This document shows, in pieces, positions 17,112-33,670 of a stretch of DNA of 64,000 nucleotides; the first letter of the stretch is position 1; every line of letters starts with the position of its first letter. The stretch is taken from the NCBI GenBank assembly GCA_017643365.1, contig JAEPNO010000004.1, positions 77,085 to 141,084 of the forward strand. Reading direction: 5' to 3'. This stretch comes from Balneolaceae bacterium. GTDB taxonomy: Bacteria > Bacteroidota > Rhodothermia > Balneolales > Balneolaceae. Under the pieces are notes generated by a model, which saw only the letters and a program-made list of their open reading frames with translations, ran no database searches and was not told the origin of the DNA. The translations under genes were made by a program, and so were the position numbers.

Positions 17112-17145
17112 GTGGGGGAGGGTGTCAGTTCTTGTCACATCAGGA

Positions 17146-17163: not shown

Positions 17164-17243
17164 CAAATTATGTGAGGTGCAATATTAAATTCCAAATTTC
17201 AATTATCAAAATTCAAACAATATTGAATCAATAATTAATCAAG

Positions 17244-17591
17244 CTAGGTACTTTTAACTAATATTGAACTGAATATTTTTAGTAATTGAGTGGCCTCATC
17301 AATTAATGCAAGCCTCTCATTATTAAGTTCTAAACTTGAATTATCATCAATCAGATTTAGCCAATATCGACTTTCCTTGGCTTCCTTTCGAGCAATTTTG
17401 ATTCGAAAGGCAAAATCTTTTTTACTAACCGCTTCATTTGCTTCAATATAGTTTGCTCCAACAGAGCCAGATGAGCGGATTAATTGTTTGGTATCTTCTA
17501 TTGTGATGACATTTTTTGGAGTTTGTTTAACAAAATTTCTTACACGCTTTGCAAAATCAAGCGTTCTTTCTTCAAGATTATAGATTGCCAT
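17244..17591 (-). CDS. Four-helix-bundle protein (23S rRNA intervening-sequence protein / Avd-like family)
   Basis: 115 aa with ...SSGSVGANYIEANEAVSKKDFAFRIKIARKEAKESRYWL..., the characteristic family signature. Confidence 0.8.
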   Translation of the reverse strand: MAIYNLEERTLDFAKRVRNFVKQTPKNVITIEDTKQLIRSSGSVGANYIEANEAVSKKDFAFRIKIARKEAKESRYWLNLIDDNSSLELNNERLALIDEATQLLKIFSSILVKST

Positions 17592-17657
17592 TTGTTTGAG
17601 ATTTGTCGTTTTGATCTTTGTTGTTTATTGAAGTCAGATCAATCTCAAACCCATTCC

Positions 17658-18845
17658 TTACAAAATTTTCTCTACCGATACTTTTAACTCACCCATCATT
17701 TCTTCGATTTGCGAAGTAGTTGTGTACGGTGCGGGGCCTAAACGAAGGATTTCATTTCGAGCGTCGGTGTAGATATTCCGTTGCATCAAATCTGCTTTGA
17801 TTTCTCTTGCTTTTGGAGATGTTAGTGACAAAAACCCACCATTTCTGGAGAGAGCTTCGTTGTGGGTTAATTTGATCTTATTTGGATCAAAATCTTGCTG
17901 CAAGAATAAGCTTCTCAGTATTCCAACTTGCGCTTCATATTGTGCACGCAGGATATCCGGTGTGAGGCCTTGATCATTAAAAAAATCAACAACTTTAGCC
18001 GCTCTAAATTGTGATGAAGGATCGTAGGTAGCACTTGCAAAACGTTGATCGGAATGGTCGTAGTTAACAGGTGCATCGGTGCGAGGATGTTCCAACGTAC
18101 TGAAAGAGGCAAACCAGCCTGTAATTGCAGGTCGGTATTCACAATCTTTAGGGAAACGTAAGAAACAGTTAGCTTCACCCCATTGTAGATATTTATAGCC
18201 TCCGATCAGTATAAAACAATCTTCCAAATCTGCTTCGCGCAGCGAAAGAGGAACAACATTAGTGCCATGGTAATCATCGATAATTACAGGAATGCCTTGA
18301 ACACGTGCCGCCGCAGCAATTTCTGATAAATGACTGTTAATCAGACTTGTTTCGAAATACACTCTTGATAGCATGATTGCAGACGTCCGGATATCAATCT
18401 CTTCGATGATACGAGTTGCAAAGTTTTCATCCGGATTAACCGGAACTCGTGCTACTTCGAGTCCGTCTTCTTCTAGGCGTTTGAGTTGCCGATGCATTGA
18501 GTGAAATTCGCCATCCGTGGTAATGATTTTCGGTTTATTCTTTAAGTCGAAACTACTCATCAGGCTTACCATCAGAAAGTGAGTACTTTCTTCCCGGCAA
18601 TAGAATCCATCGGGATCGTCGTAATACTCTCTCAAATAATTTCTGAGAACTTCCGTCTTTTCCATGGCAATGTCCCACTTTCTATCTACTTCGCGGGCGC
18701 AGATGTCGAAATATTCAACTTGACCTTCTCGTGCAACATCGGGCCAGGCTTGATGCGAATGCCCCGTAAATAAAAGTCGGTTTGCTACATCAAAATGTGA
18801 ATAATGTGGTTGGAGGCGTTTCGCAAGCTGGTCGATTTCAGACAT
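17658..18845 (-). CDS. kynU: Kynureninase-like PLP-dependent enzyme (aminotransferase class V fold)
   Basis: GGYKYLQWG (PLP-lysine region), ITGWFA and ILRLGPAPYTTT align by eye with kynureninase motifs. It is adjacent to tryptophan 2,3-dioxygenase. Confidence 0.7.
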   Translation of the reverse strand: MSEIDQLAKRLQPHYSHFDVANRLLFTGHSHQAWPDVAREGQVEYFDICAREVDRKWDIAMEKTEVLRNYLREYYDDPDGFYCREESTHFLMVSLMSSFDLKNKPKIITTDGEFHSMHRQLKRLEEDGLEVARVPVNPDENFATRIIEEIDIRTSAIMLSRVYFETSLINSHLSEIAAAARVQGIPVIIDDYHGTNVVPLSLREADLEDCFILIGGYKYLQWGEANCFLRFPKDCEYRPAITGWFASFSTLEHPRTDAPVNYDHSDQRFASATYDPSSQFRAAKVVDFFNDQGLTPDILRAQYEAQVGILRSLFLQQDFDPNKIKLTHNEALSRNGGFLSLTSPKAREIKADLMQRNIYTDARNEILRLGPAPYTTTSQIEEMMGELKVSVEKIL

Positions 18846-18921
18846 AAATAATGAAGGTTAAAACTTATTTCTAGGCTAATACTTTTCGTTGAATGAAAGT
18901 TCGGATGATAGGAATTCTATG

Positions 18922-19722
18922 TTAAAATTCAGTCCGAATTGCCCAAAGATCCGGAAATATGGCATGATTGGTAGTTTTCTTGAGGTAGTCGACGCCTGCC
19001 GAGCCTCCGGTTCCTTTTTTTCTGCCGATGGTTCGCTCAACCATTTTTACATGACGGTAGCGCCATTCTTGTAAACCTTCATCAAAATCTACCAATAACT
19101 CGCAAACAAGAGCTAATTCGGGAGCTGTTTTCATTACCTGTACGAGCTGTTTTTGAATCTCATCGGAGGTATTAAACATCAATCCAACTTCATTTTCACG
19201 AACCGGACTAACCGGGTAACCTTTCTGAGTTAGGTACTCACCAAAACTTTCCCAAATGGTAGATTCTTCCATTCGTGCCTTCAAAAGTTCGATGGTTTTA
19301 TCATCGCCTTCGTGTGCTTTTAACATCATCGGCAATCGTAATCCGCATAGAATTTCTATCTCTCTAAACTGAATCGATTGAAAACCGGTAGATTGACCTA
19401 AAAATGATCGAAAGCTATTAAATTCTAGGGGAGTCATTGTTTCCAAAATATCAACTTGAGAAACCAATGTTTTCATTATGGTTAAGATGCGCCTTAACGT
19501 CTTAATTGCATGCCACGTTTCTCCCTTTTTCAGATCATTTCTTAATTTGCCGAATTCGTGCAAAATCTGTTTAAACCAAAGCTCGTAGGTTTGATGAATT
19601 ATGATGAAAAGCATCTCATCATGTTCTTCCGGTTTCGACTTCAAATTTTGGATAGATGTTAAGGCTTCAACCTCGAGATAACTTGAATAGGTAAGATTCA
19701 TTTCACGCACAGTTTTAGACAA
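18922..19722 (-). CDS. kynA: Tryptophan 2,3-dioxygenase
   Basis: Contains YSSYLEVEALTSIQ, HDEMLFIIIHQTYELWFKQILHE, and GTGGSAGVDYLK at the C-terminus. Confidence 0.85.
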   Translation of the reverse strand: MSKTVREMNLTYSSYLEVEALTSIQNLKSKPEEHDEMLFIIIHQTYELWFKQILHEFGKLRNDLKKGETWHAIKTLRRILTIMKTLVSQVDILETMTPLEFNSFRSFLGQSTGFQSIQFREIEILCGLRLPMMLKAHEGDDKTIELLKARMEESTIWESFGEYLTQKGYPVSPVRENEVGLMFNTSDEIQKQLVQVMKTAPELALVCELLVDFDEGLQEWRYRHVKMVERTIGRKKGTGGSAGVDYLKKTTNHAIFPDLWAIRTEF

Positions 19723-20040: not shown

Positions 20041-23000
20041 ATGGTAAAAAACAGGCTATTAACACTTCTCATTTTCGTCTTGTGTTCGGGCTCGGTAGTT
20101 GCTCAAACTGGTAAAATTACCGGATTTGTTACCGACAGCGAAGGTGAGCCACTTCCCGGAGTAAGTATCCTTATTGAAGGTACGGTACAAGGTGCCGCAT
20201 CATCAGCAGATGGATATTATCAAATTCTAAATGTGGATCCGGGTGTATATACATTGCGGGCATCTTTCATAGGGTTTGCAACTTCAATAATCGAAAATGT
20301 TGAAGTAAACACCGGGTTAACTACTGAACAAGACTTCGTAATGTCGGAACAGACTATCGAAGGAGAAGAAATAGTTGTAACGGCAGAACAACCTGTTGTT
20401 CGAAAGGATGTTTCCTCGAGTCAGGCAAACATCAGTACAGATGATATTAAAGCACTTCCTGTAACAAGTGTAGCTAGTGTAATTGGACTACAGGCCGGGG
20501 TTGAAGGTTTAAGCATTCGTGGAAGCGGTTCCGATGAAGTGGCTTTTAATCTTAATGGTTTCAATTTGCGATCGGGTAGAGATAACAGCCCGTTTACCGG
20601 TATTAGTGTTACCTCAATTCAATCGGTGCAGGTTCAAACTGGTGGATTTAATGCAGAATATGGCGATTTAAGATCGGGTTTGATTAACGTAACCAGTAAA
20701 GAAGGTAATCCGGATCGCTACACAGTTGAGGGGTTATTCAGAGTTACCCCGCCTCAGGCAAAAAATGTGGGCCAAAAAATTAACGATCCTAATTCCTATT
20801 GGTTGCGCCCTTATTTAGATGATGACGTTGCATGGACCGGAACACAAAACGGTGCTTGGGATCAGTATACACAAGACAGTTACCCTGAATTTCAAGGATG
20901 GAATGAGTTTTCGAAATCGCTATTAGCTGATGACGACCCAACGAACGATTTAACTCCAGAAGGGGCTCAACAAGCATTTTTATGGCAGCATCGCAAAGAC
21001 TTTGCAATCACCAATCCCGATTATGAAATTGATTTGACCATTGGCGGTCCAGTTCCGGGAATTAGCGAAAAACTTGGAAATCTTCGATTCAGTTCTTCGA
21101 TTCGCCAAACACAGAACATGTATATCGTGCCACTTTCCAGAGATCGGTACAAGCAAACAACCTTTCAAACAAGGCTTACCAGTAATGTTGGTGATGGAAT
21201 GAAGCTATCCATTGATGGTTTATACAGCCTTGAAACCGGTACCGGTGCCAGCCAATCCGGGGATCCCGGCTTTTTTGTATCACCTTCGGGAATAGCAAGT
21301 AGCATGGATCAAGTAAGCTTTATTGATACTCGTTTATATGCCAGCGATTATTGGGCTCCATCGGAACGTGTTAATGCAAATATTGGTGCTGAGTTTACGC
21401 ATTCGCTAAATGAGAACACCTTCTATGAAATCAGCATAAATAATTATTTCTCAAGAAATTCAACCAATCCGGGAGACTATCGCGATTCAACCACTGCAGT
21501 AACCATTGGTGGTGTAGATTTTGATGAAGCTCCTTTTGGTTTCTTCGAAGCAACGTCATTCGGTATTGCATCGGGAATGCGAATGGGTATCGGGATGAGT
21601 ACATCACGCGATAGCAGTCAGGTATCTGATCTTACGATTAAGGCGAGTATTACAAGCCAAATGAACAGATTTAATTTGGTAAAAGCCGGTATCGATATTG
21701 TTCGAACGCATAGTGAGGTTAACTATGGTCGTTTCGATAAGAATCTGCAATCTAGTAATGTGAATAACACATGGAATAATAAACCCTATCGCATTGCGGG
21801 GTATGTTCAGGATAAGATCGAATTTGACGGCATGATTGCAAATTTGGGGCTTCGGCTCGACTATGTGAACCCAAATGTAGATTGGTATGATTATGAGCCT
21901 TATTCAGAGATTTTTGCTCCGGGTTTTGCCCCTGCATTAGATACGGTTTCAACTTCCAGAGTAAAGCCACAATTATTTTTACAGCCCAGGGTAGGAGTTT
22001 CATTTCCAATCACGGATAACAGCAAGCTTTTCTTTAACTATGGGCATGCGTTGCAATTGCCTGAGCCATCAACATTATATTTGGTAAGAATCGAACCTAA
22101 CACGAATACGGTTACTCGATTAGCTTCGCCGGATAGCCCGCTTGCTAAAACGGTAGCTTATGAAGTTGGTTTCGAACAAAACCTGCTAGATATTTATCTA
22201 ATTAGAATTAGTGGATACTACAAAGATATTACGAACGATCCGGCATCTCAATCTTACGTAGCACGAGGCGGATTTTCTTACAGTACCATTCAACCATTTT
22301 TCTATCGCGATATTCGAGGAGTCGAGTTTACCTTTAGAAAACAAAGAGGTAAATATTTCTGGGGCGAGATCAATTATACCTACGATGTTCAGAAACGTGG
22401 ATTCTTCGGCACACTAGTAAATTATGAGAACCCTTTCCAACAGCGTGAATATGATCGCGAAACTAACTCAAATGCTATAACACGCCCAATACCACGTCCT
22501 TTTGCACGATTGCAGCTTTATTTCAGAACACCAGAAGATCTGGGACCTGAAATATTGGGAGGTCATCCACTTGGCGGTTGGCAATTAGTGCCTATAGTTA
22601 GCTGGAAGGCTGGTTATTACTTTACTTATACAGGCGGCGGTAACATTCCGGGATTATCGAATAACCTAAAGTACAAAGATACCTGGGGCACCAGTTTACG
22701 ATTAAACAAGAACTTCAATTTAAAAGATGGGTCTAATATCAGCTTCTTTGCAGATATTTCGAACGTAATCAATCGTCGTAATTTCAACATCTTCAATTCC
22801 GGTTTAATCGACGGTAACGATTACTTGGATTATATGAGGTCGTTGCATTTACCTGAGGACAAACTAGATGAAATCGGGGTGCTAAATCAAAGTGTACCGG
22901 GGTCTGATAAGCCGGGCGATTACCGTCCTTCGGATGTTGAGTACGTACCAATCGAAGCTTCATCAGATTTGTCTACTATTACTAACCCGAATAGCCGTGC

Positions 23001-23184
23001 ACTTTATTTCAATACAAGCGAAAGAGAGTACTACCAATTTGTAAACGGGCAGTATGTAAAAGCCGATGGCGGTTTTGTTAGCCAAGTACTCGACGACAAA
23101 GCATACATCAATATGCCAGATCAACAATTTTTTAATTTCCTTGATCCGCGGACCATTCGTTTCGGCATCAAGTTTTCATTTTAA
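20041..23184 (+). CDS. TonB-dependent outer-membrane receptor with an N-terminal CarboxypepD_reg domain
   Basis: Signal peptide, a carboxypeptidase-regulatory-like domain (GKITGFVTDSEGEPLPGVSILIEGT...YTLRASFIGF), a plug region, a 1047-aa barrel, and a terminal ...FGIKFSF. Confidence 0.9.
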   Translation: MVKNRLLTLLIFVLCSGSVVAQTGKITGFVTDSEGEPLPGVSILIEGTVQGAASSADGYYQILNVDPGVYTLRASFIGFATSIIENVEVNTGLTTEQDFVMSEQTIEGEEIVVTAEQPVVRKDVSSSQANISTDDIKALPVTSVASVIGLQAGVEGLSIRGSGSDEVAFNLNGFNLRSGRDNSPFTGISVTSIQSVQVQTGGFNAEYGDLRSGLINVTSKEGNPDRYTVEGLFRVTPPQAKNVGQKINDPNSYWLRPYLDDDVAWTGTQNGAWDQYTQDSYPEFQGWNEFSKSLLADDDPTNDLTPEGAQQAFLWQHRKDFAITNPDYEIDLTIGGPVPGISEKLGNLRFSSSIRQTQNMYIVPLSRDRYKQTTFQTRLTSNVGDGMKLSIDGLYSLETGTGASQSGDPGFFVSPSGIASSMDQVSFIDTRLYASDYWAPSERVNANIGAEFTHSLNENTFYEISINNYFSRNSTNPGDYRDSTTAVTIGGVDFDEAPFGFFEATSFGIASGMRMGIGMSTSRDSSQVSDLTIKASITSQMNRFNLVKAGIDIVRTHSEVNYGRFDKNLQSSNVNNTWNNKPYRIAGYVQDKIEFDGMIANLGLRLDYVNPNVDWYDYEPYSEIFAPGFAPALDTVSTSRVKPQLFLQPRVGVSFPITDNSKLFFNYGHALQLPEPSTLYLVRIEPNTNTVTRLASPDSPLAKTVAYEVGFEQNLLDIYLIRISGYYKDITNDPASQSYVARGGFSYSTIQPFFYRDIRGVEFTFRKQRGKYFWGEINYTYDVQKRGFFGTLVNYENPFQQREYDRETNSNAITRPIPRPFARLQLYFRTPEDLGPEILGGHPLGGWQLVPIVSWKAGYYFTYTGGGNIPGLSNNLKYKDTWGTSLRLNKNFNLKDGSNISFFADISNVINRRNFNIFNSGLIDGNDYLDYMRSLHLPEDKLDEIGVLNQSVPGSDKPGDYRPSDVEYVPIEASSDLSTITNPNSRALYFNTSEREYYQFVNGQYVKADGGFVSQVLDDKAYINMPDQQFFNFLDPRTIRFGIKFSF

Positions 23185-23214
23185 TTAGGTAAGATTTTAA
23201 AACGTCATTTTAAC

Positions 23215-25338
23215 ATGAGAAATAAGAATTTATATATCCATATTTGTGTTTTCTTTGTGGCTGTTTTTCTTTCAGCTGATGCGTTTGCACAAATTGAAAA
23301 TAGATGGCTTTCCGCGGGTTCGTTTCATAATTATTACGCAAGTATTGGTTCAGAAATCGAAAGTGGATTCATTAGTGCCCAACAGGGCGGTTGGCAATGG
23401 CCTGCTATTTATGCCGGACAGGATGCTTTGGCGATGAAAGGCTTCTGGCTGGGCGTTGAAAATTTTAACGATGGTTTTACAACTTGGAACAAAAGAGTGG
23501 TACATGTTGGGCCGCGTGTAACCGGTATTGGCGAATTCTATCCAGTGAGTATAGAAACAGTGAGTAAATTCCCGCCTCCTGAAGTATATGTAGATGGTGT
23601 GCTTTCTATTTCGAAAGATGTGCAAAACGAACGGGTTGATCCTGATTTGGAAGCTGATCGAGAAATTAGAATTGTAGTAAATACCTTGATAGGAGTTACT
23701 GTAAAACGCACCATCAAACAATTTAGCCAACAGTATCACGATAATTATCACGTACTCGAGTATACCTTTATTAATACCGGTAATATCGATTCTGATCCCG
23801 AAATCGAACTTCCGGGTCAGGATTTAGAAGGATTTATTCCTTATTTCTTAAATAGAATGGCTCCCGTAAAAGCTACCCGCTATACCATTGGTAATGCTTC
23901 CGGTTGGGGAATTAACACAATGAACGATCAACGCGGAGATGGTTGGCGACCCGAAGAGCCGGAACAATTCCGAGCATCCTTTGCATGGCACGGTTACTGG
24001 CCAAATGCTGATGTTGATTACGATAACATTGGGGCTCCAATTTTTGTACCCAATACAACCGGAGGATTCTTAGCTCCTGACGATACAACCGGCCGATTGG
24101 GTGCATATCACTTTGTGGGCACCGTTACCCTTCAAGCACCCGGCTCAGTAGATAACCCAGTTGATGATCCGAATCAGCCGTTTACAATGTCGTACGAGCA
24201 TAACGATGATCCACTGTATTTTAATAACGACCCGTTTGATGCCAATAAAATGGAAGAAGAATACGCCATGATGAGTCGAGGTCGTGTAACACCTCGCCAC
24301 GCTTACGTGGTAGAACCTAGTGGAGACGCAGGATTTATTGATCCTAGTGGCGATCCATCACTAGGTGAAGGCGGTGGGCAAGCTTATACCTACGGCTACG
24401 GACCTTATAACCTCGCCTTTGGTGACAGTGTGACCATTGTAATAGCAGAAGCATCATCAGGAATATCTCGTGAACTAGCCGGTACAACCGGGGCTGCCTT
24501 TAAAAATGGTGAAATAAGCGCAATAGAGAAAAACCAAGTTGTATTTCAAGGCAGGGATTCGTTGTTCCAAACTTTTGAACGTGCGATTGAAAACTACAAA
24601 TCGGATTATGCAATACCTGAATCTCCAGAACCACCTTCGTTATTTCAATTATTTTCAGCAGGTGATGGGATACGGTTAGAGTGGGAATTTGATGGTAATG
24701 CATCAACATTAGAAGGATTTCAAATTTACAGAACTACAGGTGCTGTTGATAACGAATACGAATTATTATACGTAGCTGATGCAAGTGAAAGAAAAATAAG
24801 TGATGGAGAAGCAGATCGAGTAACCAACCCGGGGGCTTTTTTGTTAGAAACTCCCATTCGTGGCCGAGATTACTATTACTACATTGTTAGTGTTGGGGCG
24901 GTGAATTCTGATAATACCGGATCTACACCAACCGGTAATCGCTTAATTAGTAATCGATATTATTCTCAAAGTTACGATCCTGTTCGATTACTAGGCCCTC
25001 CGGGCGAATTATTATCAGAAATTCGAGTAGTTCCGAATCCATATAGTCCAAGAGCGGCATCGGAACTAAGCTTGGATCTAGACAGGAGTATTGAATTTGG
25101 ACGAATAGATTTTGTTGGGCTTCCAAGAATTGCCACTATTGAAATCTACACCGAAATAGGTGAGCGTGTTAAAACGATAGAACACACGAACGGTTCGGGG
25201 TCAACATCTTGGAATTTACAAACTGATTCTCGTCAGGAAGTAGTAAGTGGAATTTACATTGCACGATTTATCAATAAAGATCCACTCGACGACGAGTTTG
25301 GAAGAGAAATCATCCGTAAAATAGTAATTATTCTATAG
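23215..25338 (+). CDS. Secreted hypothetical protein (707 aa) with an FN3-like segment and a divergent T9SS-CTD/FlgD-Ig-like C-terminus
   Basis: Signal peptide ...LSADAFAQ, an FN3-like stretch IRLEWEF...FQIYRT, and a C-terminal VVPNPYSP...VSGIYIARF...RKIVIIL. I recognise no family for the first ~450 aa. Confidence 0.7.
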   Translation: MRNKNLYIHICVFFVAVFLSADAFAQIENRWLSAGSFHNYYASIGSEIESGFISAQQGGWQWPAIYAGQDALAMKGFWLGVENFNDGFTTWNKRVVHVGPRVTGIGEFYPVSIETVSKFPPPEVYVDGVLSISKDVQNERVDPDLEADREIRIVVNTLIGVTVKRTIKQFSQQYHDNYHVLEYTFINTGNIDSDPEIELPGQDLEGFIPYFLNRMAPVKATRYTIGNASGWGINTMNDQRGDGWRPEEPEQFRASFAWHGYWPNADVDYDNIGAPIFVPNTTGGFLAPDDTTGRLGAYHFVGTVTLQAPGSVDNPVDDPNQPFTMSYEHNDDPLYFNNDPFDANKMEEEYAMMSRGRVTPRHAYVVEPSGDAGFIDPSGDPSLGEGGGQAYTYGYGPYNLAFGDSVTIVIAEASSGISRELAGTTGAAFKNGEISAIEKNQVVFQGRDSLFQTFERAIENYKSDYAIPESPEPPSLFQLFSAGDGIRLEWEFDGNASTLEGFQIYRTTGAVDNEYELLYVADASERKISDGEADRVTNPGAFLLETPIRGRDYYYYIVSVGAVNSDNTGSTPTGNRLISNRYYSQSYDPVRLLGPPGELLSEIRVVPNPYSPRAASELSLDLDRSIEFGRIDFVGLPRIATIEIYTEIGERVKTIEHTNGSGSTSWNLQTDSRQEVVSGIYIARFINKDPLDDEFGREIIRKIVIIL

Positions 25339-25350
25339 GTAGGTATTAGC

Positions 25351-26358
25351 GTGAGATTCAAAAGTATCATATTAATTGCACTGGTTAGTTTAATATCTAC
25401 CGGATTTGCACATGCTCAAAGTAAAAGAGCGCAAACTTCAATGAAGTTTCTTAGTGTTTCTCCATCAGCGCGCGCTGCAGGTATGTCGGATGCCGTTACC
25501 TCGTTAGATATGGGAGCTTATGGTGCATTGTACAATCCTGCTACAATGTCCCAGTTTAATGGTAAGTATGCAGCAACAGTTGGCGCCGTTCAATGGATTG
25601 CTGATATTTATCATAGTTCAGCTTCATTTGTTTATAAGCCTGGTTCTGGTAAAGTTGGAGTATTTGGGTTTAATATTATATCTGTTGACTATGGTGATAT
25701 TCTGGCAACAGCATTTTCAGAAACTGAAGAAGGCGGTTATGTTGATCTAGGTACCTTTAGCCCTTCAGCTATGGTGTTAGGATTATCCTATGCTAACGCA
25801 CTAACCGATAAATTTTCAATTGGGGTAAACTTCCGCTATGGAAGTCAAGATCTTGGCTCCGCTCCAATCAGTTTAGATGGTGCAGGTGGATATAATTATC
25901 AATCATTCTCAGCTAATTCTCAGCTTCTCGATTTTGGAATACTGTATAAAACCGGTTTTGAAAGCCTGAATTTAGCGATGGCAATTCGAAATTTTGGACC
26001 TGAAACTCAATATGATGTCGAGTCAGCAGAGCTGCCACTTACTTTTAAAATGGGTGTTTCCATGGATATTTTGGATGTCACCAACATCGACAAAGACATC
26101 CATTCATTGTTGATTAGTATTGATAGTAACAATGCCCGTGACTACGACGAACAACTGCTTTTTGGTTTTGAATACACCTTTGTAGATCGCTTCGTGATAC
26201 GAGGGGGGCATGGTTTCCCGAAAGACGAAGAAAGTTTCAGTTTAGGTATGGGGGTTAAACAACCTTTGGGCTCACTTACTTTAAGTGTCGATTACTCATA
26301 CACTGCTTTCGGTGTATTTGGTGAAGTACAACGCTTTGGTGCACAAATAGGATTTTAA
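25351..26358 (+). CDS. PorV/PorQ-family outer-membrane beta-barrel
   Basis: GTG start and signal peptide ...GFAHAQ. The motif SARAAGMSDAVTS...ALYNPA resembles the PorV/PorQ N-terminal signature. It ends in an aromatic residue (...AQIGF). Confidence 0.65.
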   Translation: MRFKSIILIALVSLISTGFAHAQSKRAQTSMKFLSVSPSARAAGMSDAVTSLDMGAYGALYNPATMSQFNGKYAATVGAVQWIADIYHSSASFVYKPGSGKVGVFGFNIISVDYGDILATAFSETEEGGYVDLGTFSPSAMVLGLSYANALTDKFSIGVNFRYGSQDLGSAPISLDGAGGYNYQSFSANSQLLDFGILYKTGFESLNLAMAIRNFGPETQYDVESAELPLTFKMGVSMDILDVTNIDKDIHSLLISIDSNNARDYDEQLLFGFEYTFVDRFVIRGGHGFPKDEESFSLGMGVKQPLGSLTLSVDYSYTAFGVFGEVQRFGAQIGF

Positions 26359-26371
26359 TAGGTATCGGATA

Positions 26372-27628
26372 ATGAAGTTTAAAAAATCAGTTTTTGCCAT
26401 CCTCTTTCTTTCACTTATTGTGGGTGGGTATTCGTGTAACGATGGATTTAGTGTGTACGATCCCGAATACGAGTCGAGCGCACCAAGCCCTCAAATTACA
26501 AACATCAGTCCGGCAGGTGGTTATCTGGCCGGTGTTGATTCTGTAATCGTAACCGGAACGAATTTTTCTGCTGATCCGGATTCGTTGATTATAGATTTTG
26601 GCGGTTCAGCCGGCATACTTAAAATGGTTTCCAAAACGGAGATGATTGTTCGTCCCGGTAAAAATTTTGGTGAAAACTTACCGGTTCGAGTAGCCTTACG
26701 TGGCCAAGAATTTTTCAGCGATCCATATCCATATACTCTTTTTCAACCTTTTGGAGTTTATCCCGGTCTAACTTCTGAAGATGAGCCAACTACCCCGGTT
26801 GCTGTTGATGCAGACAATAATGTTTATGCGATTTTCACAAGAAATAAAGAAACTCGGTATCGTAAAATATCGCCAGATGGAACTATAGAAACGGATGCTG
26901 TACTAGCACCGGATGATAACGGCCCCACCAATAGTACCATGAGATTTAACGCGTATTCGTCGCTAGTAGTTGGCCCAGGTGGCGAGCTTTTTATGGCTCA
27001 GCAAAGTATTCGGGCTATTTTCAGAAAAACCTTTGGTGATGGGGCTAGAGAAGGGGTTTGGGCTGCTTCCTCTTCAGGTTCATTCAAAATCCGTGACATG
27101 GTATTCGATAATAATGGCTATTTATGGGTTGTTGGGCGAGATAGCGATCAAATACATCGATTTGATGCCACTACTCGCGCCGAATCCAAATTCCCATTTG
27201 AAGGAATCCTATCATCGGTAGCATTTTACAGTAACGAAAATGAATTGTATGTTGGAGGTTTAGTAGACAGCACTCAAAGCATTTGGAAATTCACAATCGA
27301 CGGATCGGGTAACATAGGATCGGGCGAACTCTATTTCGATTTTGGCAATCATTACAAAGGAATTGTTGCCTCTATGATTTTTGCGTCAAATGGAGAATTA
27401 TTAATTGCTACCGGACCGAAAATTGACGGCATTGATAAACCGGGGATCATTAAACTTTACCCGGATGGAAGACATGAGCAACTCCATAACGATATGATAA
27501 AAGACGGAGCGTACAGTATAACCTGGCGCGACGATAAATTCGCCGTTGTTGCAATTCAAGGCGAAGAAACGAGCATTAACTTACTGGATATGTATGATCG
27601 TAATCGATCAGGTATATTCGGATTTTAA
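26372..27628 (+). CDS. IPT/TIG-domain lipoprotein with a beta-propeller-like body
   Basis: Lipobox-like ...VGGYSC. An IPT/TIG-like segment follows (ITNISPAGGYLAGVDSVIVTGTNFSADPDSLIIDFGG), then repetitive beta-rich sequence. Confidence 0.65.
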   Translation: MKFKKSVFAILFLSLIVGGYSCNDGFSVYDPEYESSAPSPQITNISPAGGYLAGVDSVIVTGTNFSADPDSLIIDFGGSAGILKMVSKTEMIVRPGKNFGENLPVRVALRGQEFFSDPYPYTLFQPFGVYPGLTSEDEPTTPVAVDADNNVYAIFTRNKETRYRKISPDGTIETDAVLAPDDNGPTNSTMRFNAYSSLVVGPGGELFMAQQSIRAIFRKTFGDGAREGVWAASSSGSFKIRDMVFDNNGYLWVVGRDSDQIHRFDATTRAESKFPFEGILSSVAFYSNENELYVGGLVDSTQSIWKFTIDGSGNIGSGELYFDFGNHYKGIVASMIFASNGELLIATGPKIDGIDKPGIIKLYPDGRHEQLHNDMIKDGAYSITWRDDKFAVVAIQGEETSINLLDMYDRNRSGIFGF

Positions 27629-27689
27629 TTACAATCAAACCGATAACTAATCTAAATACTATCGATACACTGATACTAGGAGATATATT

Positions 27690-29069
27690 ATGAAAATAAA
27701 CAAACTAATAGCTCTATTGGGCTTACTGCTCATACCGGCTATGGCAAGCGCACAATGGGCGCATGACACTACTTTTGTACCAATGGGGGATGATCTCTTC
27801 TTAGAAGTTCATGGAGTAGCTGTTGACGGCGAAGGCAAAATTTGGATTCAACCATTTTCTGCCACAGAAACAATTGTAACCAACCGTGACTTAGGTGACG
27901 ATGGTGTGCCTGATACATTAAGTACACGAGTTGTATATGTATACAATGCTGACGGTACTCCGGCAAGTTTCTCTCCACTTAAAGTAATCACATATGCTGA
28001 CGATACCCCTGCTGATACACTTGGTAGAGTATGGACAGGTGATTCATATGTAGGGTATTCTGGTCGTGGAATTGAAGCAGATTATAATGGCGATATCATT
28101 ATTTCTCAATTTAACAGATTATATAAAGTAAACCATGTTACAGGCCAAGGCATTGCGAAAGCTGATGTTCCTGATGTTTGTGCAATTACTGAAGCTAGTA
28201 CTGATGCTGCAAACAACATCTACGTTGGTGCTGTTTGTGCTGCAGACACTCCAATTTGGAAGTACGATTCTAACCTTGAAAACCCAGAGCAGGTTATTAC
28301 TCTAGGAAGCAGTTTCTCACGTGACCTTCAAGTATCTGCTGATGGTAATACCATTTGGTGGGCTGGTTATACTCTAGGCGCTGTACTAAAATACACTCGT
28401 CCGGATGAATTCAGTGGTTTCGATGCTACTCCAGATACTGTACTTCGCGGTATGAAATCAGAAAGCTTCGATATCCATCCAGTAACAGGTTACCTATGGG
28501 CAGGTTCCGGTTCATTAAATGATGTACCTAACGCTCCTTACCAACCACAAACTTGGTATGCGTTTGATCCTGCTGATATTGGTACTGATAACGAAGCACC
28601 ATTAGATAGTATTCGCTGGGCTGCCGGTGCAGATGTTGCTGCCGGTTTCGATAATGCTCGTCCTCGTGGCTTAGATTTCTCAGCGGATGGTAAAACGGCT
28701 TACGTTGGTGCTTTCAGTGCTGCTGAAACTACTGTTGATCTCCAAAAATTCACTACCGATCAGGTATTTATTTCTAACGAAGAAGAAAATATCAGTGGTA
28801 TTCCTGCAGGTTACAGCCTAGAGCAAAATTACCCGAATCCATTCAACCCTTCTACTAACATTCAGTTCACAATCAACGAACCGGGTGCAGTTACTTTGAA
28901 GGTGTATGACATGACCGGACGTGAAGTGGCTTCCATTCTTGATGGCCGCATGAACGCTGGTGAGCATACTGTAAGATTCGATGCTTCTGCACTTTCTTCA
29001 GGTGTTTACATTTATGTAATGCAATCAAACGGCGTACGTTTGACCAACAAAATGACTTTAATTAAATAA
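27690..29069 (+). CDS. Beta-propeller-like secreted protein with a T9SS type-A C-terminal sorting domain
   Basis: Signal peptide ...AMASAQ. The C-terminal ~80 aa read LEQNYPNPFNPSTNIQF...SSGVYIYVMQ...KMTLIK, a Por secretion tail. Confidence 0.8.
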   Translation: MKINKLIALLGLLLIPAMASAQWAHDTTFVPMGDDLFLEVHGVAVDGEGKIWIQPFSATETIVTNRDLGDDGVPDTLSTRVVYVYNADGTPASFSPLKVITYADDTPADTLGRVWTGDSYVGYSGRGIEADYNGDIIISQFNRLYKVNHVTGQGIAKADVPDVCAITEASTDAANNIYVGAVCAADTPIWKYDSNLENPEQVITLGSSFSRDLQVSADGNTIWWAGYTLGAVLKYTRPDEFSGFDATPDTVLRGMKSESFDIHPVTGYLWAGSGSLNDVPNAPYQPQTWYAFDPADIGTDNEAPLDSIRWAAGADVAAGFDNARPRGLDFSADGKTAYVGAFSAAETTVDLQKFTTDQVFISNEEENISGIPAGYSLEQNYPNPFNPSTNIQFTINEPGAVTLKVYDMTGREVASILDGRMNAGEHTVRFDASALSSGVYIYVMQSNGVRLTNKMTLIK

Positions 29070-29090
29070 TTTTAGTTATAGGTTACCAAA

Positions 29091-29120
29091 GAGGCAGCAT
29101 GTTATGTGCTGCCTTTTTTA
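29091..29120 (+). terminator. Rho-independent terminator inside the receptor locus
   Basis: The stem GGCAGCA (29092-29098) pairs with TGCTGCC (29108-29114) and is followed by TTTTTTA. Confidence 0.6.
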
Positions 29121-29143
29121 TTCCAATCTGTTATCCAAAAACA

Positions 29144-31135
29144 ATGCAGTTCAGATTTTTACTCACTTTACTTCTTACCCTTAGCTTTTCTGCTGCCGTA
29201 TTTTCGCAGAATAGTGATCAACCTAAATACGAGTTTCGCGCTACGTGGATGGCCACTGTTGTAAACCTAGATTGGCCGGCGTCAGGATCTTTACCTGTTC
29301 GATTTCAAAAACAAAGTTTAAAAGACCGCCTAGACGATATGAAAGAAGTGGGCATTAATGCCTTGTTCTTTCAAATCAGAACCGAAGGCGATGCATTGTA
29401 CGCATCCGATTTAGAGCCGTGGTCGAAATACCTTACCGGACAAGAAGGAAGGGCACCGGATCCATATTGGGATCCTCTTGAATTTGTGATAGAAGAAGCT
29501 CACAAACGAGGAATGGAATTACATGCGTGGTTGAATCCTTACCGAGCAATGAGAACAATACCGGATGATTTTTCTCAAAAAGCAATGGTGCAAAATATCG
29601 AAGAAGAGCATGAAGGCTTAACATCTTTCTTAAAAAAATATGAAGCCGAAGCTGAGTATTACAAAGCTAAAGGAACGACTGCCCGAGATTCGATGCATGT
29701 TGCAAACAAAAACCCTGAATGGTTGATGGTTATGAACGATGCCATCGCCATTATGAATCCGGGTTTACCTGAGGTTATCGATTATAACGTACAAGTGGTG
29801 ATGGATGTAGTTAACCGGTACGATATCGACGGAATACATTTCGATGATTACTTCTATCCATATCCACCAAATAATATGGGAAGTAACGATAACGAGTCGA
29901 TGGATGATTCAACTTTTGCTCAATACCCTCGTGGCTTCGATAATAAAGGAGATTGGCGCAGAAATAACATCGATATTTTTGTAGAAGCACTGCATGATTC
30001 CATCCAACAGGTGAAACCTTGGGTTAAGTTTGGAATAAGTCCTTTCGGAATCTGGAAATCGGGTGTACCATCCGGTATTAGCGGAATGGATGCATACAGC
30101 GTTATTTATGGCGATGCCTTAGCATGGATTCATGCGCAAACCATCGACTATATAACTCCTCAATTATATTGGGCAATTAGCCGGTTTGGAACCGGTCAGG
30201 ATTATAAGAAACTAGCGGATTGGTGGGCAGATGAGGCATTTGCCTACGACCGACATACCTATCCCGGACATGGATTGTATCGCTCAAGTAGTAGTACTTT
30301 CTCTGGATCACTATTTGCCGCAAATGAAATACCTAGGCAAGTTCAACATAATCGTGGTAATGATAAGATTACCGGAAGCGTGTTTTTTCGATCAAGCAAT
30401 CTAACAACATACAGTTCAAAAGGCTTTGCTGATACGCTTAAAACAAATTACTACCGTTTTCCTGCGCTACAACCAATCATGGATTGGAAAGACACTACTG
30501 CACCGGCAACTCCGGATCTTTTAACTGTAAACAGAGATACCGAAGCACAAAATACGTTTCATTTAGAATGGGATCGTCCTTCATTGGATATGAACACTAA
30601 AAATACGAGTGTATATCAAGATACTTTGCTTAAGTATGCCATCTATCGTGTGGATGCAGCAGAGCAACCGGATGCAATTAGCGCCATGGCATCTCCTGAA
30701 AATATGATTGCTGTAACAGGGCAAACTTCTTACACCGATGTTGCCCCACCATCGGAGCATAGCTATTGGTATTTTATTACTTCGGCCAGTAGAAATAATG
30801 TTGAAAGCGAACCTACCGAAGTTGAAGAGGCTGGTGTGGTTGTGAGTAATGAAGAACCAACAGAGCTTCCATCAACCATTTCACTTCAACAGAATTACCC
30901 GAATCCATTCAATCCCGCAACTTCGATAAGTTTTAAACTACCCGAAAGTGGCAATGCGCAGTTAGTTGTTTACAATTTGTTGGGACAGCAAGTGGCAACA
31001 ATCCACGAAGGCAGATTAAACGCCGGATCGCATACCTTCAGATTTGATGCATCAGGATTATCAACCGGTGTGTATGTATATCAATTGCGCTACAATGGTA
31101 CTGCTCTAACACGTAAAATGATGCTCATCAAATAA
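29144..31135 (+). CDS. Glycoside-hydrolase-like family 10 (GHL10/DUF187) protein with a T9SS C-terminal sorting domain
   Basis: The ATG at 29144 gives the signal peptide MQFRFLLTLLLTLSFSAAVFSQ. EFRATWMATVVNLDWP and GIHFDDYFYP are GHL10-like. The C-terminus reads LQQNYPNPFNPATSISF...KMMLIK. Confidence 0.8.
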   Translation: MQFRFLLTLLLTLSFSAAVFSQNSDQPKYEFRATWMATVVNLDWPASGSLPVRFQKQSLKDRLDDMKEVGINALFFQIRTEGDALYASDLEPWSKYLTGQEGRAPDPYWDPLEFVIEEAHKRGMELHAWLNPYRAMRTIPDDFSQKAMVQNIEEEHEGLTSFLKKYEAEAEYYKAKGTTARDSMHVANKNPEWLMVMNDAIAIMNPGLPEVIDYNVQVVMDVVNRYDIDGIHFDDYFYPYPPNNMGSNDNESMDDSTFAQYPRGFDNKGDWRRNNIDIFVEALHDSIQQVKPWVKFGISPFGIWKSGVPSGISGMDAYSVIYGDALAWIHAQTIDYITPQLYWAISRFGTGQDYKKLADWWADEAFAYDRHTYPGHGLYRSSSSTFSGSLFAANEIPRQVQHNRGNDKITGSVFFRSSNLTTYSSKGFADTLKTNYYRFPALQPIMDWKDTTAPATPDLLTVNRDTEAQNTFHLEWDRPSLDMNTKNTSVYQDTLLKYAIYRVDAAEQPDAISAMASPENMIAVTGQTSYTDVAPPSEHSYWYFITSASRNNVESEPTEVEEAGVVVSNEEPTELPSTISLQQNYPNPFNPATSISFKLPESGNAQLVVYNLLGQQVATIHEGRLNAGSHTFRFDASGLSTGVYVYQLRYNGTALTRKMMLIK

Positions 31136-31137
31136 AG

Positions 31138-32157
31138 ATGTCGAATCGAAGAAATTTCATCAAAAAAATTGGACTGGGCACTCTTGGAATAGGCGGAGCA
31201 ATTTCCGCCGGGTGCTTAACCAATGATGAGGTTTTTAACTTCGTTCATCTAACCGATACACATGTAACTTCTCGCCGGCAAGGCCACTTGGGGTATCAAG
31301 CATGTGTGGACTCGATTAATGCACTACAAACACCGCCTGATTTTGTATTGATGGGCGGCGATATGGTGTTTGATGGATTGTACAACGAAATGGATGAATA
31401 CGACGAGCAGATTCGACTTTTCAAAGAAATCAGCGAAGGGTTGAACATGCCGTATTACCCTTGCCTTGGAAATCATGATGTGCTCGGACTTTCTTCTAGA
31501 AGAAAGGTTCCGGTTGATCATCTGGGGATGGGAAGAAAATACATTATGGATGCTCTCGGTATGGATGATGCATATTATTCGTTCAATCATAAGGGATGGC
31601 ATTTTGTAGTGCTTAATTCCATTCATGAGATTGAATTAAGTCACGGTCCGGCTTATGAACATAAAATAGGGGAAGAGCAATTAGATTGGCTACGGTACGA
31701 TTTAGGAGCTCATAAAGACATGCCGACGATTGCCACATCTCATTACGCTGTGTTTAATCACCTTGGTCAAATCAATGCTGATCCTGATTTGAAGGCAATG
31801 AATCACCTGATTTTAAAAGACAACAAAAAGCTTCGCAATATTTTAGAACGGCATGGAGTAAAAGCGCTACTTCAAGGACATACACACATCAGCGAAGATT
31901 TTCGTTTTAACGATGTCTGGTACATTACTAGTCAGGCCGGATCAGCAGCATGGTGGGGTGGAAATTGGCTGGGTTTCGAACCGGGTTATAACGTTATGAC
32001 TTTAGGTAAAGATGAAATCCTCGATTGGAAAGCTCATACCTTTGAATGGGAGCATCAATTAGAACCGGATGACACCATCGAACGTGATCGCATTCTGGAA
32101 AGAGAAGAATTCAACGCCCGAATGGATAGCCTTTATCAGGCTGAAATTTCTGGGTGA
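31138..32157 (+). CDS. Tat-signal calcineurin-like metallophosphoesterase
   Basis: Twin-arginine leader SNRRNFIKKIGLG, plus LTDTHV, GGDMV, GNHD and GHTH metallophosphatase motifs. Confidence 0.8.
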   Translation: MSNRRNFIKKIGLGTLGIGGAISAGCLTNDEVFNFVHLTDTHVTSRRQGHLGYQACVDSINALQTPPDFVLMGGDMVFDGLYNEMDEYDEQIRLFKEISEGLNMPYYPCLGNHDVLGLSSRRKVPVDHLGMGRKYIMDALGMDDAYYSFNHKGWHFVVLNSIHEIELSHGPAYEHKIGEEQLDWLRYDLGAHKDMPTIATSHYAVFNHLGQINADPDLKAMNHLILKDNKKLRNILERHGVKALLQGHTHISEDFRFNDVWYITSQAGSAAWWGGNWLGFEPGYNVMTLGKDEILDWKAHTFEWEHQLEPDDTIERDRILEREEFNARMDSLYQAEISG

Positions 32158-32171: not shown

Positions 32172-32313
32172 AACCCTTCTAGGGTTTCGATGAATATCGA
32201 ATTTCCTTCTCCTTCTTTTAGCAACCTTACTTCTTCTTTAACCCTTCTAGGGTTCCAAACCCTAGAAGGGTTAGCAAAACGAAAACGATGGATTTTAAAC
32301 CCTAGAAAGGTTG
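32172..32313. repeat. Cluster of nested palindromic intergenic repeat units (AACCCT-NNN-AGGGTT family)
   Basis: AACCCTTCTAGGGTT lies at 32172-32186. A perfect 16-bp-arm palindrome, TAACCCTTCTAGGGTT-CCA-AACCCTAGAAGGGTTA, lies at 32239-32273. The partial unit AAACCCTAGAAAGGTT lies at about 32297-32312. Confidence 0.85.
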
Positions 32314-32367
32314 TTAATTGGACAACGCATGGTTTGCAAAACCACGCTAGATTAGAACCTTTACCAA

Positions 32368-32389
32368 GTGAAGGACTTTAGTCCTTCAC
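32368..32389. repeat. Perfect 10-bp-stem hairpin just downstream of the nagX-like gene
   Basis: GTGAAGGACT-TT-AGTCCTTCAC lies 22 nt beyond the stop of the minus-strand gene that ends at 32411. Confidence 0.7.
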
Positions 32390-32410: not shown

Positions 32411-33571
32411 CTAAACCTTGATAATGATATTCTTTTTCTTCATCCAGCGCGCCAGCAAGTAAAACAGAATTATCCAAGTGATGGCATACAGTAACGAGGC
32501 ATTTATCGGCGAAGCAACCGAGCGGTAAACAACTTCATACAAGAATGTTTTTAACGCATATTCTTGTCCGTTATAACTGAATTTGATGAGGAACATCAAT
32601 CGACCGATGATTCCACTTAAAAAGAAAACGGTGATGGCATTCAGCCCAAATGCAACGCCCCAATCAGTAAATCGTTGCTTCTCTTTCACATCTATAAACC
32701 AATAAGCCAGCCCGAAAAAGCACATTGCTTGTCCGCCGGTAAACAACGTATACGAGCTGGTCCAGATGTTTTTATTGATAGGAAAAACCCAACTCCAAAC
32801 ATACCCGAGGATGATCAGAATGAATCCCCAAACAAAAAATTGAAGAGTTCGACTCGATTCTGATTCGTGATCTTTCATCAACATTCGACCGGTCCAAATA
32901 CCGATTAACGTGCTACCGATTGCGGGAAAAGTGCTCAGGAATCCTTCAGGATCCCAGTTTTCTTTCCAGGTATGTCCTTCAAGCAATAATTGATCGATGT
33001 AAGCAGCAAGGTTTCCATCAGCGAGATGAATGGCCCCGGCGCCATGACCGGGAACGGGAATCAAGGTCATTGCCAGCCAATAGCCAACTAAAAGGGAACC
33101 GAGCGTAATCATTTGGGCTTTCGGCTTGGTGTATAAAAAAAGAAAAGCTCCAACTGCGTAGCAAATAGCGATACGCTGTAATACCCCGGGAATGCGAATG
33201 TCGATCAGGTTTGGGTGGAGTGAAAATCCCGATGTGAAAGAGAAATAGGGGAAAGCAGAAAGAGCCAATCCTAAACCGAAAATTTTGGCAGCTCTGATCA
33301 AAGTTTTTCGCGCTAAATCGGAATCCTGCGCGCCTTTGGCCTTAGCTTTTGTAAATGCGAGGACAATGGATACACCGACAATAAATAGAAAGAAAGGAAA
33401 GATCAGGTCTGTCGGGGTCCAACCATGCCAAGGAGCATGTTTCAAAGGGCCGTACATGTGCGACCAAGAACCCGGATTATTAACCAAAATCATTGCTGCA
33501 ACGGTAGCGCCCCGAAAGAAATCTAAAGAGACCAAACGCTTGCCCGACGAAATTCCGCTAAGTGTTGTCAT
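32411..33571 (-). CDS. Heparan-alpha-glucosaminide N-acetyltransferase-like membrane acyltransferase (DUF1624/DUF5009, NagX-like)
   Basis: The N-terminal signature is LVSLDFFRGATVAAMILVNNPGSWSHMYGPLKHAPWHGWTPTDLIFPFFLFIVG. 386-aa polytopic protein. Confidence 0.8.
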   Translation of the reverse strand: MTTLSGISSGKRLVSLDFFRGATVAAMILVNNPGSWSHMYGPLKHAPWHGWTPTDLIFPFFLFIVGVSIVLAFTKAKAKGAQDSDLARKTLIRAAKIFGLGLALSAFPYFSFTSGFSLHPNLIDIRIPGVLQRIAICYAVGAFLFLYTKPKAQMITLGSLLVGYWLAMTLIPVPGHGAGAIHLADGNLAAYIDQLLLEGHTWKENWDPEGFLSTFPAIGSTLIGIWTGRMLMKDHESESSRTLQFFVWGFILIILGYVWSWVFPINKNIWTSSYTLFTGGQAMCFFGLAYWFIDVKEKQRFTDWGVAFGLNAITVFFLSGIIGRLMFLIKFSYNGQEYALKTFLYEVVYRSVASPINASLLYAITWIILFYLLARWMKKKNIIIKV

Positions 33572-33670
33572 CAGAAAGTAAATTGTTTATAAGATGCCAT
33601 AAATAACGGCTTCTGATTGGGAATGGAAACACGGGATAACTATTTTTGCAACAATTAATTAAACGAATTG

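Follow-up and report, generated by a model that had tools for sequence, protein, structure and literature searches.

For Bacteroidota and related bacteria, nearly the whole explanation of glycan uptake rests on the SusC/SusD pair. In the corresponding polysaccharide utilization loci (PULs, or "utilisomes"), a single co-directional set of genes encodes a large TonB-dependent transporter, whose TonB box is preceded by a CarboxypepD_reg extension, along with surface accessory proteins and secreted enzymes that cleave glycans. The T9SS (type IX secretion system) carrier barrels are known from secretion, attachment, and gliding. Here, we describe a gene cassette that joins the two. The cassette lies at positions 20041 to 32157 of a 64,000-nucleotide (nt) stretch of a Balneolaceae bacterium genome (contig JAEPNO010000004.1, positions 77,085 to 141,084; the whole stretch is referred to as the window), whose closest named relatives are Balneolaceae/Gracilimonas; a complete relative (OZ245822.1) has a cassette that is 91% identical. 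It encodes a TonB-dependent receptor with no SusD partner, a 707-amino-acid (aa) secreted protein, a barrel of the PorV/PorQ family, and a TIG-domain lipoprotein, followed by secreted proteins that include a GHL10 glycan hydrolase.

Three pairs of T9SS proteins are the closest mechanistic precedents for what is proposed below. PorU retains its sorting tail and remains on PorV, PorZ does likewise on PorQ, and a review has proposed that "cognate PorV-like beta-barrels" shield such tails from cleavage (PMC10202324). T9SS substrates are recognized by cognate carrier proteins, and type B adhesins stay on theirs (PMC10994853). In the case of SprB and SprF, which represent the SprF/PorP carriers with type B substrates, the carrier gene adjoins the substrate gene and the substrate stays on its carrier at the cell surface. 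None of these pairs (PorQ-PorZ, PorV-PorU, and SprF-SprB) is tied to a TonB-dependent receptor. Full-text literature searches, whose coverage was incomplete, found no published account of a cassette that combines a receptor with a PorV-like barrel, or of a TonB locus with GHL10 and NamZ.

Seven open reading frames (ORFs), all in one direction on the + strand, spanned 20041-32157 with gaps of 30, 12, 13, 61, 29 (or 74), and 2 nt, and these coordinates bore out the layout of seven co-directional genes with 2- to 74-nt gaps given in the original prediction, which had been made from the DNA sequence. The features of the cassette and the evidence for each, including AlphaFold2 (AF2) models and Foldseek fold searches, were as follows.

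20041-23184, + strand: TonB-dependent receptor, 1047 aa (Pfam/NCBIfam, AF2, Foldseek)
23215-25338, + strand: 707-aa secreted protein of an uncharacterized family (no Pfam match; AF2, Foldseek)
25021-25335, + strand: variant T9SS C-terminal domain (CTD) of the 707-aa protein, aa 603-707 (CTD alignment, local hidden Markov model [HMM], AF2)
25351-26358, + strand: PorV/PorQ-family outer-membrane barrel, 335 aa (NF033709, PF19572)
26372-27628, + strand: IPT/TIG surface lipoprotein with a propeller-like C-terminal domain (PF01833, lipobox Cys)
27690-29069, + strand: 459-aa secreted protein with a canonical type A T9SS tail (TIGR04183/PF18962)
29093-29119, + strand: intrinsic-terminator-like hairpin (sequence, folding of relatives)
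29099-31135 (ORF; likely start, 29144), + strand: GHL10 (Cwp19/DigH-type) glycan hydrolase with a canonical type A tail (PF02638, PF18962)
31138-32157, + strand: metallophosphoesterase with a twin-arginine translocation (Tat) signal (PF00149, RRNFIK)

To survey related loci, we compared an alignment of 707-aa homologs with one genome per species from 185,579 species. Relatives of the 707-aa protein were encoded in 519 stretches of this collection, and the best 80 of these yielded a set of 79 loci, a few of which duplicate one genome (L005, L006, and L053). The loci came from Balneolaceae, Rhodohalobacter, Cyclonatronaceae, Rhodothermales, Ignavibacteriales, Caldithrix, KSB1, and metagenome-assembled genomes (MAGs) with other labels. 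When the window proteins were searched against the loci, the order receptor, 707-aa protein, barrel, TIG lipoprotein, CTD protein, GHL10 enzyme, on a single strand, was collinear in nearly all 79 of them. Specifically, counting the cases with enough flanking DNA, the receptor gene was upstream of the 707 homolog in 78 of 84 cases and the barrel gene was downstream of it in 71 of 79; the TIG gene (64/75), the 459-aa-type gene (49/58), and the GHL10 gene (46/58) were usually in the expected positions as well. The exceptions were orphan paralogs, loci with tandem cassettes, and contig ends. Conservation of gene order had been set as a check that could refute the original prediction, and the order was kept across several phyla in nearly all of the 79 independently assembled loci, which is far beyond chance. 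Thus, the conserved core is almost certainly the receptor, the 707-aa protein, the PorV/PorQ-family barrel, and the TIG lipoprotein, usually followed by the CTD protein and the GHL10 enzyme, in several phyla of the FCB group.

Five loci (L051, L059, L065, L071, and L073) contained a second, divergent cassette, each with its own barrel. The second cassettes showed 31 to 36% identity in the 707-like protein and 38 to 43% in the receptor, and L076 contained a second copy of the barrel only. Because some genomes hold two cassette-linked barrels in one locus, the barrel is a component of the locus and not merely a stray housekeeping gene. Because the divergent second cassettes each have their own barrel, the four-gene core (receptor, 707-aa protein, barrel, and TIG lipoprotein) appears to act as a diversifying module, like SusC/D pairs. 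The loci with tandem cassettes were labeled KSB1, Caldithrix, Ignavibacteriales, or "Cytophagia" (the last being MAGs; e.g., L065:13741-21000), and the barrel gene was ahead of the receptor gene in three of the loci with a second cassette.

The cassette resembles SusC/SusD PULs in the features described above, and its Ig-like lipoprotein is in the SusE/F position. The co-located glycan enzymes and surface glycan-binding lipoproteins by which PULs are recognized were represented in the block by the GHL10 enzyme and the TIG lipoprotein. The receptor had a signal peptide, an N-terminal CarboxypepD_reg extension (NTE), a plug, and a 22-strand barrel (Pfam; AF2 pLDDT, 81.9), and it carried the sequence EEIVVTA, which we take to be a TonB-box-like motif, at aa 109-115, after the NTE. 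However, the receptor scored 68 bits on the SusC/RagA model TIGR04056, whose cut-off is 368, and only aa 25-163 (NTE and plug) aligned. A profile of 35 receptor orthologs searched against the Protein Data Bank (PDB) likewise aligned RagA only over the NTE and plug. In a Foldseek search with the AF2 model, the best matches were FusA, PqqU, YddB, and Cir, with FepA also ahead of the SusC-type chains, which were at ranks 17 to 20. We also considered the receptor as a SusC or another known subtype; neither the PDB profile, nor 35 members scanned with Pfam, nor the fold search pointed to anything beyond a generic TonB-dependent transporter with an NTE.

Among the seven cassette proteins, there were no Pfam or NCBIfam matches to the SusD/RagB family. 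Following the receptor gene is one whose product is a beta-rich T9SS protein with a type I signal peptide and no lipobox, not an alpha-helical lipoprotein. A disguised SusD at this position, which would have made the locus an ordinary PUL, was rejected: the AF2 model of the 707-aa protein was beta-rich, and no SusD/RagB protein was among the best 50 of 1712 Foldseek matches listed, which extended down to an E value of 10. The absence of SusD noted in the original prediction therefore held for both the receptor and its neighbor. In short, the locus works like a PUL but lacks both defining parts, a SusC-family receptor and a SusD partner, and a PorV-family barrel belongs to its core. A classical SusCDE operon has been reported in M. 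roseus (PMC3534657), and a Melioribacteraceae MAG related to it (L003) carries the cassette. If SusCDE and the cassette both occur in one lineage, the cassette would be a different system and not a mere substitute where SusD is absent. In L003 (L003:2428-6259), a Y_Y_Y-type hybrid sensor kinase gene and a GerE response regulator gene were directly upstream of the receptor gene, as in many classical PULs. A sensor kinase/GerE regulator pair was also present in L079, and none adjoined the cassette in the window.

The family assignment of the barrel in the original prediction was correct. The barrel scored 175 bits on the PorV/PorQ family model NF033709 (cut-off, 90) and 38.3 bits on the Pfam PorV model PF19572 (cut-off, 27), so it passed both, and it matched the solved PorV of F. 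johnsoniae (6h3i_F) over aa 8-241 with an E value of 2e-6. In contrast, it scored 76.6 bits on the PorV equivalog model NF033710 (cut-off, 250) and 82.8 bits on the PorQ equivalog model NF033711 (cut-off, 220). Thus, membership in the family stood, and orthology to PorV or PorQ by these cut-offs did not. The length of the barrel is about that of PorQ. An HMM of the cassette barrels detected no PorV-family ORF other than the cassette copies in the window or in 85 loci.

The 707-aa protein matched no Pfam family even at an E value of ≤10. Its AF2 model, built with 45 homologs, was beta-rich (pLDDT, 86.5; pTM, 0.83) and had a beta-rich N-domain of about 440 residues (about aa 27-470), an Fn3-like domain (about aa 475-600), and the variant CTD. 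In the PDB, Foldseek matched the model to Fn3 tandems and to PorZ (5m11) and, weakly, to beta sandwiches. When 1.84 billion representatives were searched with a profile, 451 family members were found at an E value of ≤1e-30, and these included proteins of 1050 to 1600 aa in which the 707-type domain was fused to BNR/sortilin propellers or beta-helix repeats.

The original prediction had taken the 707-aa protein to be tail-less, and here it was mistaken: alignment, HMM scores, and the structural model identified a variant T9SS CTD. The CTD was modeled as a seven-strand sandwich; it preserved the fold of T9SS tails and their PNP, GxY, and K-x-hydrophobic motifs and had two insertions. The tail had no match to the type A models TIGR04183/PF18962 (E ≤ 10 for Pfam and E ≤ 0.01 for NCBIfam) or to the type B models PF13585/TIGR04131. 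From Balneolaceae to KSB1, the cassette copies shared a common variant, namely IRVVPNPY, an insertion of 12 to 14 residues, TDGSGD.yW, SRQ.VVSGvYIA, and an end of the form K.vIIR/L. The tail encoded in the window read IRVVPNPY, a 12- to 14-aa insert, TNGSGS..W, SRQ.VVSGIYIA, and a RKIVIIL end.

To compare the tails, an HMM of canonical CTDs was built from 119 tails of the GHL10 and 459-aa-type proteins of the loci, and the last 110 residues of each 707 homolog were scored. The cassette-embedded copies scored 3 to 19 bits, and the window copy scored 10.7 bits (E, 0.002). In contrast, five orphan 707 paralogs with no receptor or barrel neighbor scored 96 to 107 bits (E, 1e-30 to 1e-33), and their tails read as ordinary tails (QNYPNPFNP ... 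KK.xLxK). For four of these five, the same genome also had a cassette copy (L004; L045 with L028; L046 with L016; L023). In the Gracilimonas sediminicola genome (L004:10001-12112), the orphan paralog lay between an AI-2E transporter gene and recX; there was no gene at the matching site of the window (11123-12900). All seven of the fusion relatives that were scanned had canonical tails (PF18962), and in the three whose contexts were read, no barrel or receptor was present in the available DNA, the flanks of which were short. In a rough neighbor-joining tree of the N-domains, the forms with canonical tails appeared in at least three places among the cassette copies. In these sequences, the 707-type protein carried the variant CTD whenever a barrel gene was adjacent and a canonical one in paralogs and fusion relatives that had no barrel neighbor.

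This co-variation, together with T9SS precedent, led us to propose that the barrel may serve the 707-aa protein as its own carrier and anchor, an arrangement like that of PorQ and PorZ whose probability we put close to even. Both systems would combine a PorV/PorQ-family barrel with a T9SS protein whose CTD, proposed to be kept, acts as the anchor, as in PorV-PorU. The C terminus of the 707-aa protein also showed weak similarity to PorZ in sequence (15.9 bits on the PorZ model NF052228, which has a cut-off of 260; E, 0.0034; C-terminal 60 aa only) and in fold (5m11 in Foldseek; E, 1.9e-5; TMq, 0.13). The cassette pair differs from these precedents in that the barrel is below the PorQ and PorV equivalog cut-offs, the 707-aa protein is below that of the PorZ model, and the pair is encoded inside a nutrient-uptake locus, in two copies in some genomes. 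It differs from SprB-SprF in its divergent type A-like tail, in the PorV/PorQ family as the best family of its barrel, and in its role in nutrient capture rather than gliding. Some observations tell against the proposed pairing. The short flanks of the fusion relatives were noted above, and the five Balneolaceae orphans form one clade and hence represent a single event. In a look for stronger purifying selection on the variant tail, the ratio of CTD to body identity was 0.92 for the 707 family, 0.91 for GHL10, and 1.31 for the 459-aa protein, so that, relative to the protein body, the variant tail is not more conserved than ordinary tails of the loci. The NCBI name of some cassette copies is still "T9SS type A sorting domain-containing protein," so the 707 tail is a divergent type A tail and might be cleaved normally. 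For the wider model given below, a further weakness is that the Foldseek matches of the 707 N-domain were only weak beta-sandwich matches (TMq ≤ 0.25).

Two other roles for the barrel had to be weighed. In the version given in the original prediction, a local PorV binds the canonical tails of the locus enzymes (GHL10 and 459-aa proteins) and holds them near the receptor. PorV does bind type A CTDs (PMC10994853), and two genes for proteins with canonical tails follow the barrel gene in most loci. However, the GHL10 and 459-aa tails are ordinary type A tails, indistinguishable from those of a distant amidase or of the orphan paralogs. Furthermore, the barrel was present in L082 and L085 without a GHL10 gene and in the tandem loci L051, L065, L071, and L073 without a GHL10 gene or a CTD-protein gene within the flank, and the feature that tracks the barrel is the variant tail of the 707-type protein. 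Capture of the locus enzymes is therefore an unlikely function of the barrel, and the 707-aa protein, whose tail type co-varies with the barrel, is the likelier client. The barrel could also be unrelated to T9SS tails. It might let an amphipathic portion of the substrate pass, as a side channel of the FadL type, or it might partner the receptor or the TIG lipoprotein structurally, in the way that BamG holds BamH. In favor of this, PorV is homologous to FadL, the FadL-like BamG uses its loops to hold a surface protein (PMC12578637), and the barrel is only remotely like the solved PorV. On the other hand, the score of the barrel on the PorV/PorQ family model speaks for a T9SS role, and such a channel or partner would leave the link between the presence of a barrel and the tail type of its neighbor unexplained; we regard it, too, as improbable.

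The TIG protein (PF01833) had a lipobox Cys in 63 of 64 homologs, followed by acidic or polar residues. Residues 125 to 346 of this protein were homologous (25% identity; E, 1e-16) to a domain fused upstream of the 707-type domain in the fusion relative P0378, and because of this fusion, the sequences suggest that the TIG lipoprotein and the 707-aa protein work together. Either of the two could cap the receptor. In BtuB-BtuG of Bacteroides, a TonB-dependent transporter that is not of the SusC type works with a propeller-type surface lipoprotein, and BtuB-BtuG complexes (8p98 and 8bmx) were among the fold matches of the receptor. By analogy with this precedent, the propeller-bearing TIG lipoprotein is a candidate lid. 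Unlike BtuB-BtuG, the cassette has two additional conserved partners, the 707-aa protein and the barrel. The 459-aa protein had a canonical tail (TIGR04183/PF18962; 45.6 bits, cut-off 23), as anticipated in the original prediction; the propeller assigned to it there did not appear in Pfam, where a homolog gave only faint NHL/SBBP matches. Searches of the TIG and 459-aa proteins against PDB sequences gave no matches, and no paralogy between the two proteins was detectable. The metallophosphoesterase (PF00149), which has an RRNFIK twin-arginine motif, had 18 homologous ORFs in the loci, all in Balneolaceae. A 63-codon ORF with no family match was called right after the metallophosphoesterase gene in both public assemblies (window 32190-32381, + strand; L001:18976-19167).

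The GHL10 enzyme is preceded by the hairpin that the original prediction had placed at 29091-29120 as a possible terminator, and this hairpin proved to be real. It consists of the stem GGCAGCA/TGCTGCC with a 7-nt loop (29093-29113), followed by T6 at 29114-29119. A simple consensus terminator scan missed it, and it was confirmed by eye and by folding of relatives: in all 13 Balneolaceae loci examined, the hairpin was kept behind the 459-aa gene with compensatory changes (RNAfold, -19 to -26 kcal/mol). The ATG at 29099 falls within the hairpin, which makes 29144, where the signal peptide begins, the most likely start of the GHL10 gene; the public gene call of 663 aa agrees with this start.

The GHL10 enzyme matched PF02638 (E, 3e-64) and PF18962 and had a type A tail (44.3 bits; cut-off, 23). 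Its GHL10 domain matched Cwp19 of C. difficile (5oq2) with an E value of 1.6e-82, and Cwp19 cleaves peptidoglycan (PMC6016235, PMC5765458). E. coli DigH degrades amidase-denuded glycans and acts in cell division (PMC12288456). Several genes downstream of the cassette in the window encode proteins related to peptidoglycan breakdown or lie beside such genes. In this list, MurNAc is N-acetylmuramic acid.

32411-33571, - strand: NagX-like transmembrane N-acetyltransferase, adjoining the cassette downstream
33668-34528, + strand: BcrAD_BadFG sugar kinase, downstream of the cassette
34525-35586, - strand: NagZ-like GH3 protein (185.6 bits; cut-off, 207)
35690-36937, + strand: NamZ exo-beta-N-acetylmuramidase (E, 1e-83)
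36843-38780, + strand: Amidase_3 protein (645-aa ORF)
49934-52423, - strand: T9SS-secreted MurNAc-L-Ala amidase with Amidase_3, Big_5, and a CTD (CTD, 44.6 bits; cut-off, 23)
52456-53415, - strand: TolB-like PD40 propeller protein, beside the secreted amidase gene
53539-54831, - strand: AmpG-family major facilitator superfamily permease, beside the PD40 gene

In the ORF at 36843-38780, the Amidase_3 domain makes up the C-terminal 190 residues, and the first 450 residues or so had no family match. The true start is probably later because the ORF start overlaps the NamZ end by 95 nt.

The genes for the secreted amidase and the PD40 protein are 18 kb from the cassette in the window. In 13 loci outside Balneolaceae (Ignavibacteriales, Rhodohalobacter, Cyclonatronaceae, and others), their homologs were directly upstream of the receptor gene. 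Since both genes adjoin the receptor gene there, an ancestral block seems to have been split in Balneolaceae. An amidase-like gene, a 707-type fusion gene, and a GHL10 gene remained neighbors even without a receptor gene, and murB and murA flanked the cassette in L005/L006. A receptor-less stretch (L090:1-11423; JGI 3300021154) encoded the C-terminal fragment of an amidase-like protein, a BNR propeller joined to a 707-type domain with a canonical tail, and a GHL10 plus GHL6 protein with a tail; on the opposite strand was the gene of a T9SS-tailed alpha-amylase (GH13, with CBM48).

The substrate of the cassette is probably peptidoglycan. The original prediction had listed cell-wall material as a candidate substrate, and this guess gained support from the Cwp19-like GHL10 enzyme, NamZ, the secreted amidase, and the synteny of the amidase gene. 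The window thus shares with Cwp19/DigH and with AmpG/NagZ/NamZ muropeptide processing a Cwp19-like GHL10 enzyme and NamZ, NagZ-like, AmpG-like, and amidase genes. What sets it apart is that the cassette-linked amidase and the GHL10 enzyme, a member of the same family as DigH, carry T9SS tails and are coupled to a TonB-dependent receptor.

The same architecture might instead act on another glycan, such as an alpha-glucan or an exopolymer rich in N-acetylglucosamine (GlcNAc), and several points lessen the case for peptidoglycan. GHL10 specificity is mixed, with Deinococcus DogH acting on starch (PMC9967864), and Cwp19 is a slow peptidoglycan hydrolase that lyses cells 13 to 66 times more slowly than lysozyme (PMC5765458). 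A T9SS-tailed alpha-amylase gene neighbors the genes for a 707-type fusion and a GHL10 enzyme at the P0378 locus. In addition, the NagX-like, kinase, NagZ-like, and NamZ genes were syntenic with the cassette only in Balneolaceae loci. However, MurNAc-L-Ala amidases and NamZ are specific for peptidoglycan, and the secreted amidase was the most consistent neighbor of the cassette outside Balneolaceae, which makes another glycan an improbable choice. Alternatively, the locus might serve the cell's own wall through re-uptake of shed muropeptides or remodeling. Such a role would be in keeping with the work of DigH in cell division, with the resemblance of the AmpG-like and NagZ-like genes to classical recycling genes, and with the presence of rodA/PBP2/mreBCD (assigned by synteny) in the same window. 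The T9SS tails of the amidase and the GHL10 enzyme argue against it, since these enzymes would work beyond the outer membrane, at a distance from the sacculus of their own cell, and a TonB-dependent receptor implies import from outside. T9SS export and the receptor therefore point to attack on an external cell wall rather than to autolysis or septal remodeling, and a role in the cell's own wall seems very remote.

Taken together, these results led us to a model in which peptidoglycan from other cells would be harvested by a SusD-independent outer-membrane cassette with a barrel-anchored 707-aa protein; we consider the model as a whole evenly poised between right and wrong. T9SS would export the 707-aa protein, with the barrel of the locus as its cognate carrier, and the uncleaved variant CTD would keep the protein on the barrel, as PorZ is kept on PorQ and PorU on PorV. 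The beta-rich binding (or catalytic) module of the 707-aa protein would thereby sit beside the receptor, and this protein and the TIG surface lipoprotein would do the job of the SusD/E/F lipoproteins. The GHL10 and 459-aa proteins, with their canonical tails, would take the general T9SS route. Outside the cell, the secreted amidase would remove the peptides from peptidoglycan, the Cwp19/DigH-like GHL10 enzyme would cut the bare glycan, and the receptor would import the oligosaccharides. NamZ, the NagZ-like enzyme, the amidase, the NagX-like acetyltransferase, the AmpG-like permease, and the sugar kinase would complete the breakdown.

In a bolder form of the model, which we offer tentatively and think rather doubtful, a single stable outer-membrane machine assembled by T9SS would comprise the receptor, the TIG lipoprotein, and the 707-aa protein anchored on its barrel. 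This machine would be a second, SusD-independent "utilisome" that is ancient in the FCB group and feeds on the peptidoglycan of dead or prey bacteria. The variant tail would then add a third class to the carrier-specific T9SS signals, next to type A with PorV and type B with PorP-SprF.

Several neighboring genes are unrelated to the cassette. Upstream (16041-19722, - strand), the window contained recA and genes for a four-helix protein of the 23S-rRNA-intervening-sequence type, kynureninase, and tryptophan 2,3-dioxygenase. Between recX and recA, there were genes for a FIST-domain protein and a hybrid histidine kinase (12924-15982) that were otherwise present only in the closest relatives (L007, L009, L010, and L012). 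Downstream (42294-48515, - strand), a gene for a CusB/HlyD-type fusion protein with a heavy-metal-binding domain was followed by ORFs of 426 and 1046 aa, which may form an efflux set with it. A search of the whole window against Rfam gave no matches, and therefore no riboswitch was found.

The cassette is widespread, conserved, and unannotated. Every one of its components is a named gene in a cultured organism, such as Gracilimonas tropica DSM 19535 (L015), and the model is thus directly testable. If the model is true, the cassette would represent a new way to build a nutrient-capture complex and would provide a natural test case for how a T9SS tail chooses its carrier and escapes cleavage. 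It would also be a candidate for the way in which the abundant bacteria of sediments and saline lakes recycle peptidoglycan, which is a large pool of bacterial necromass.

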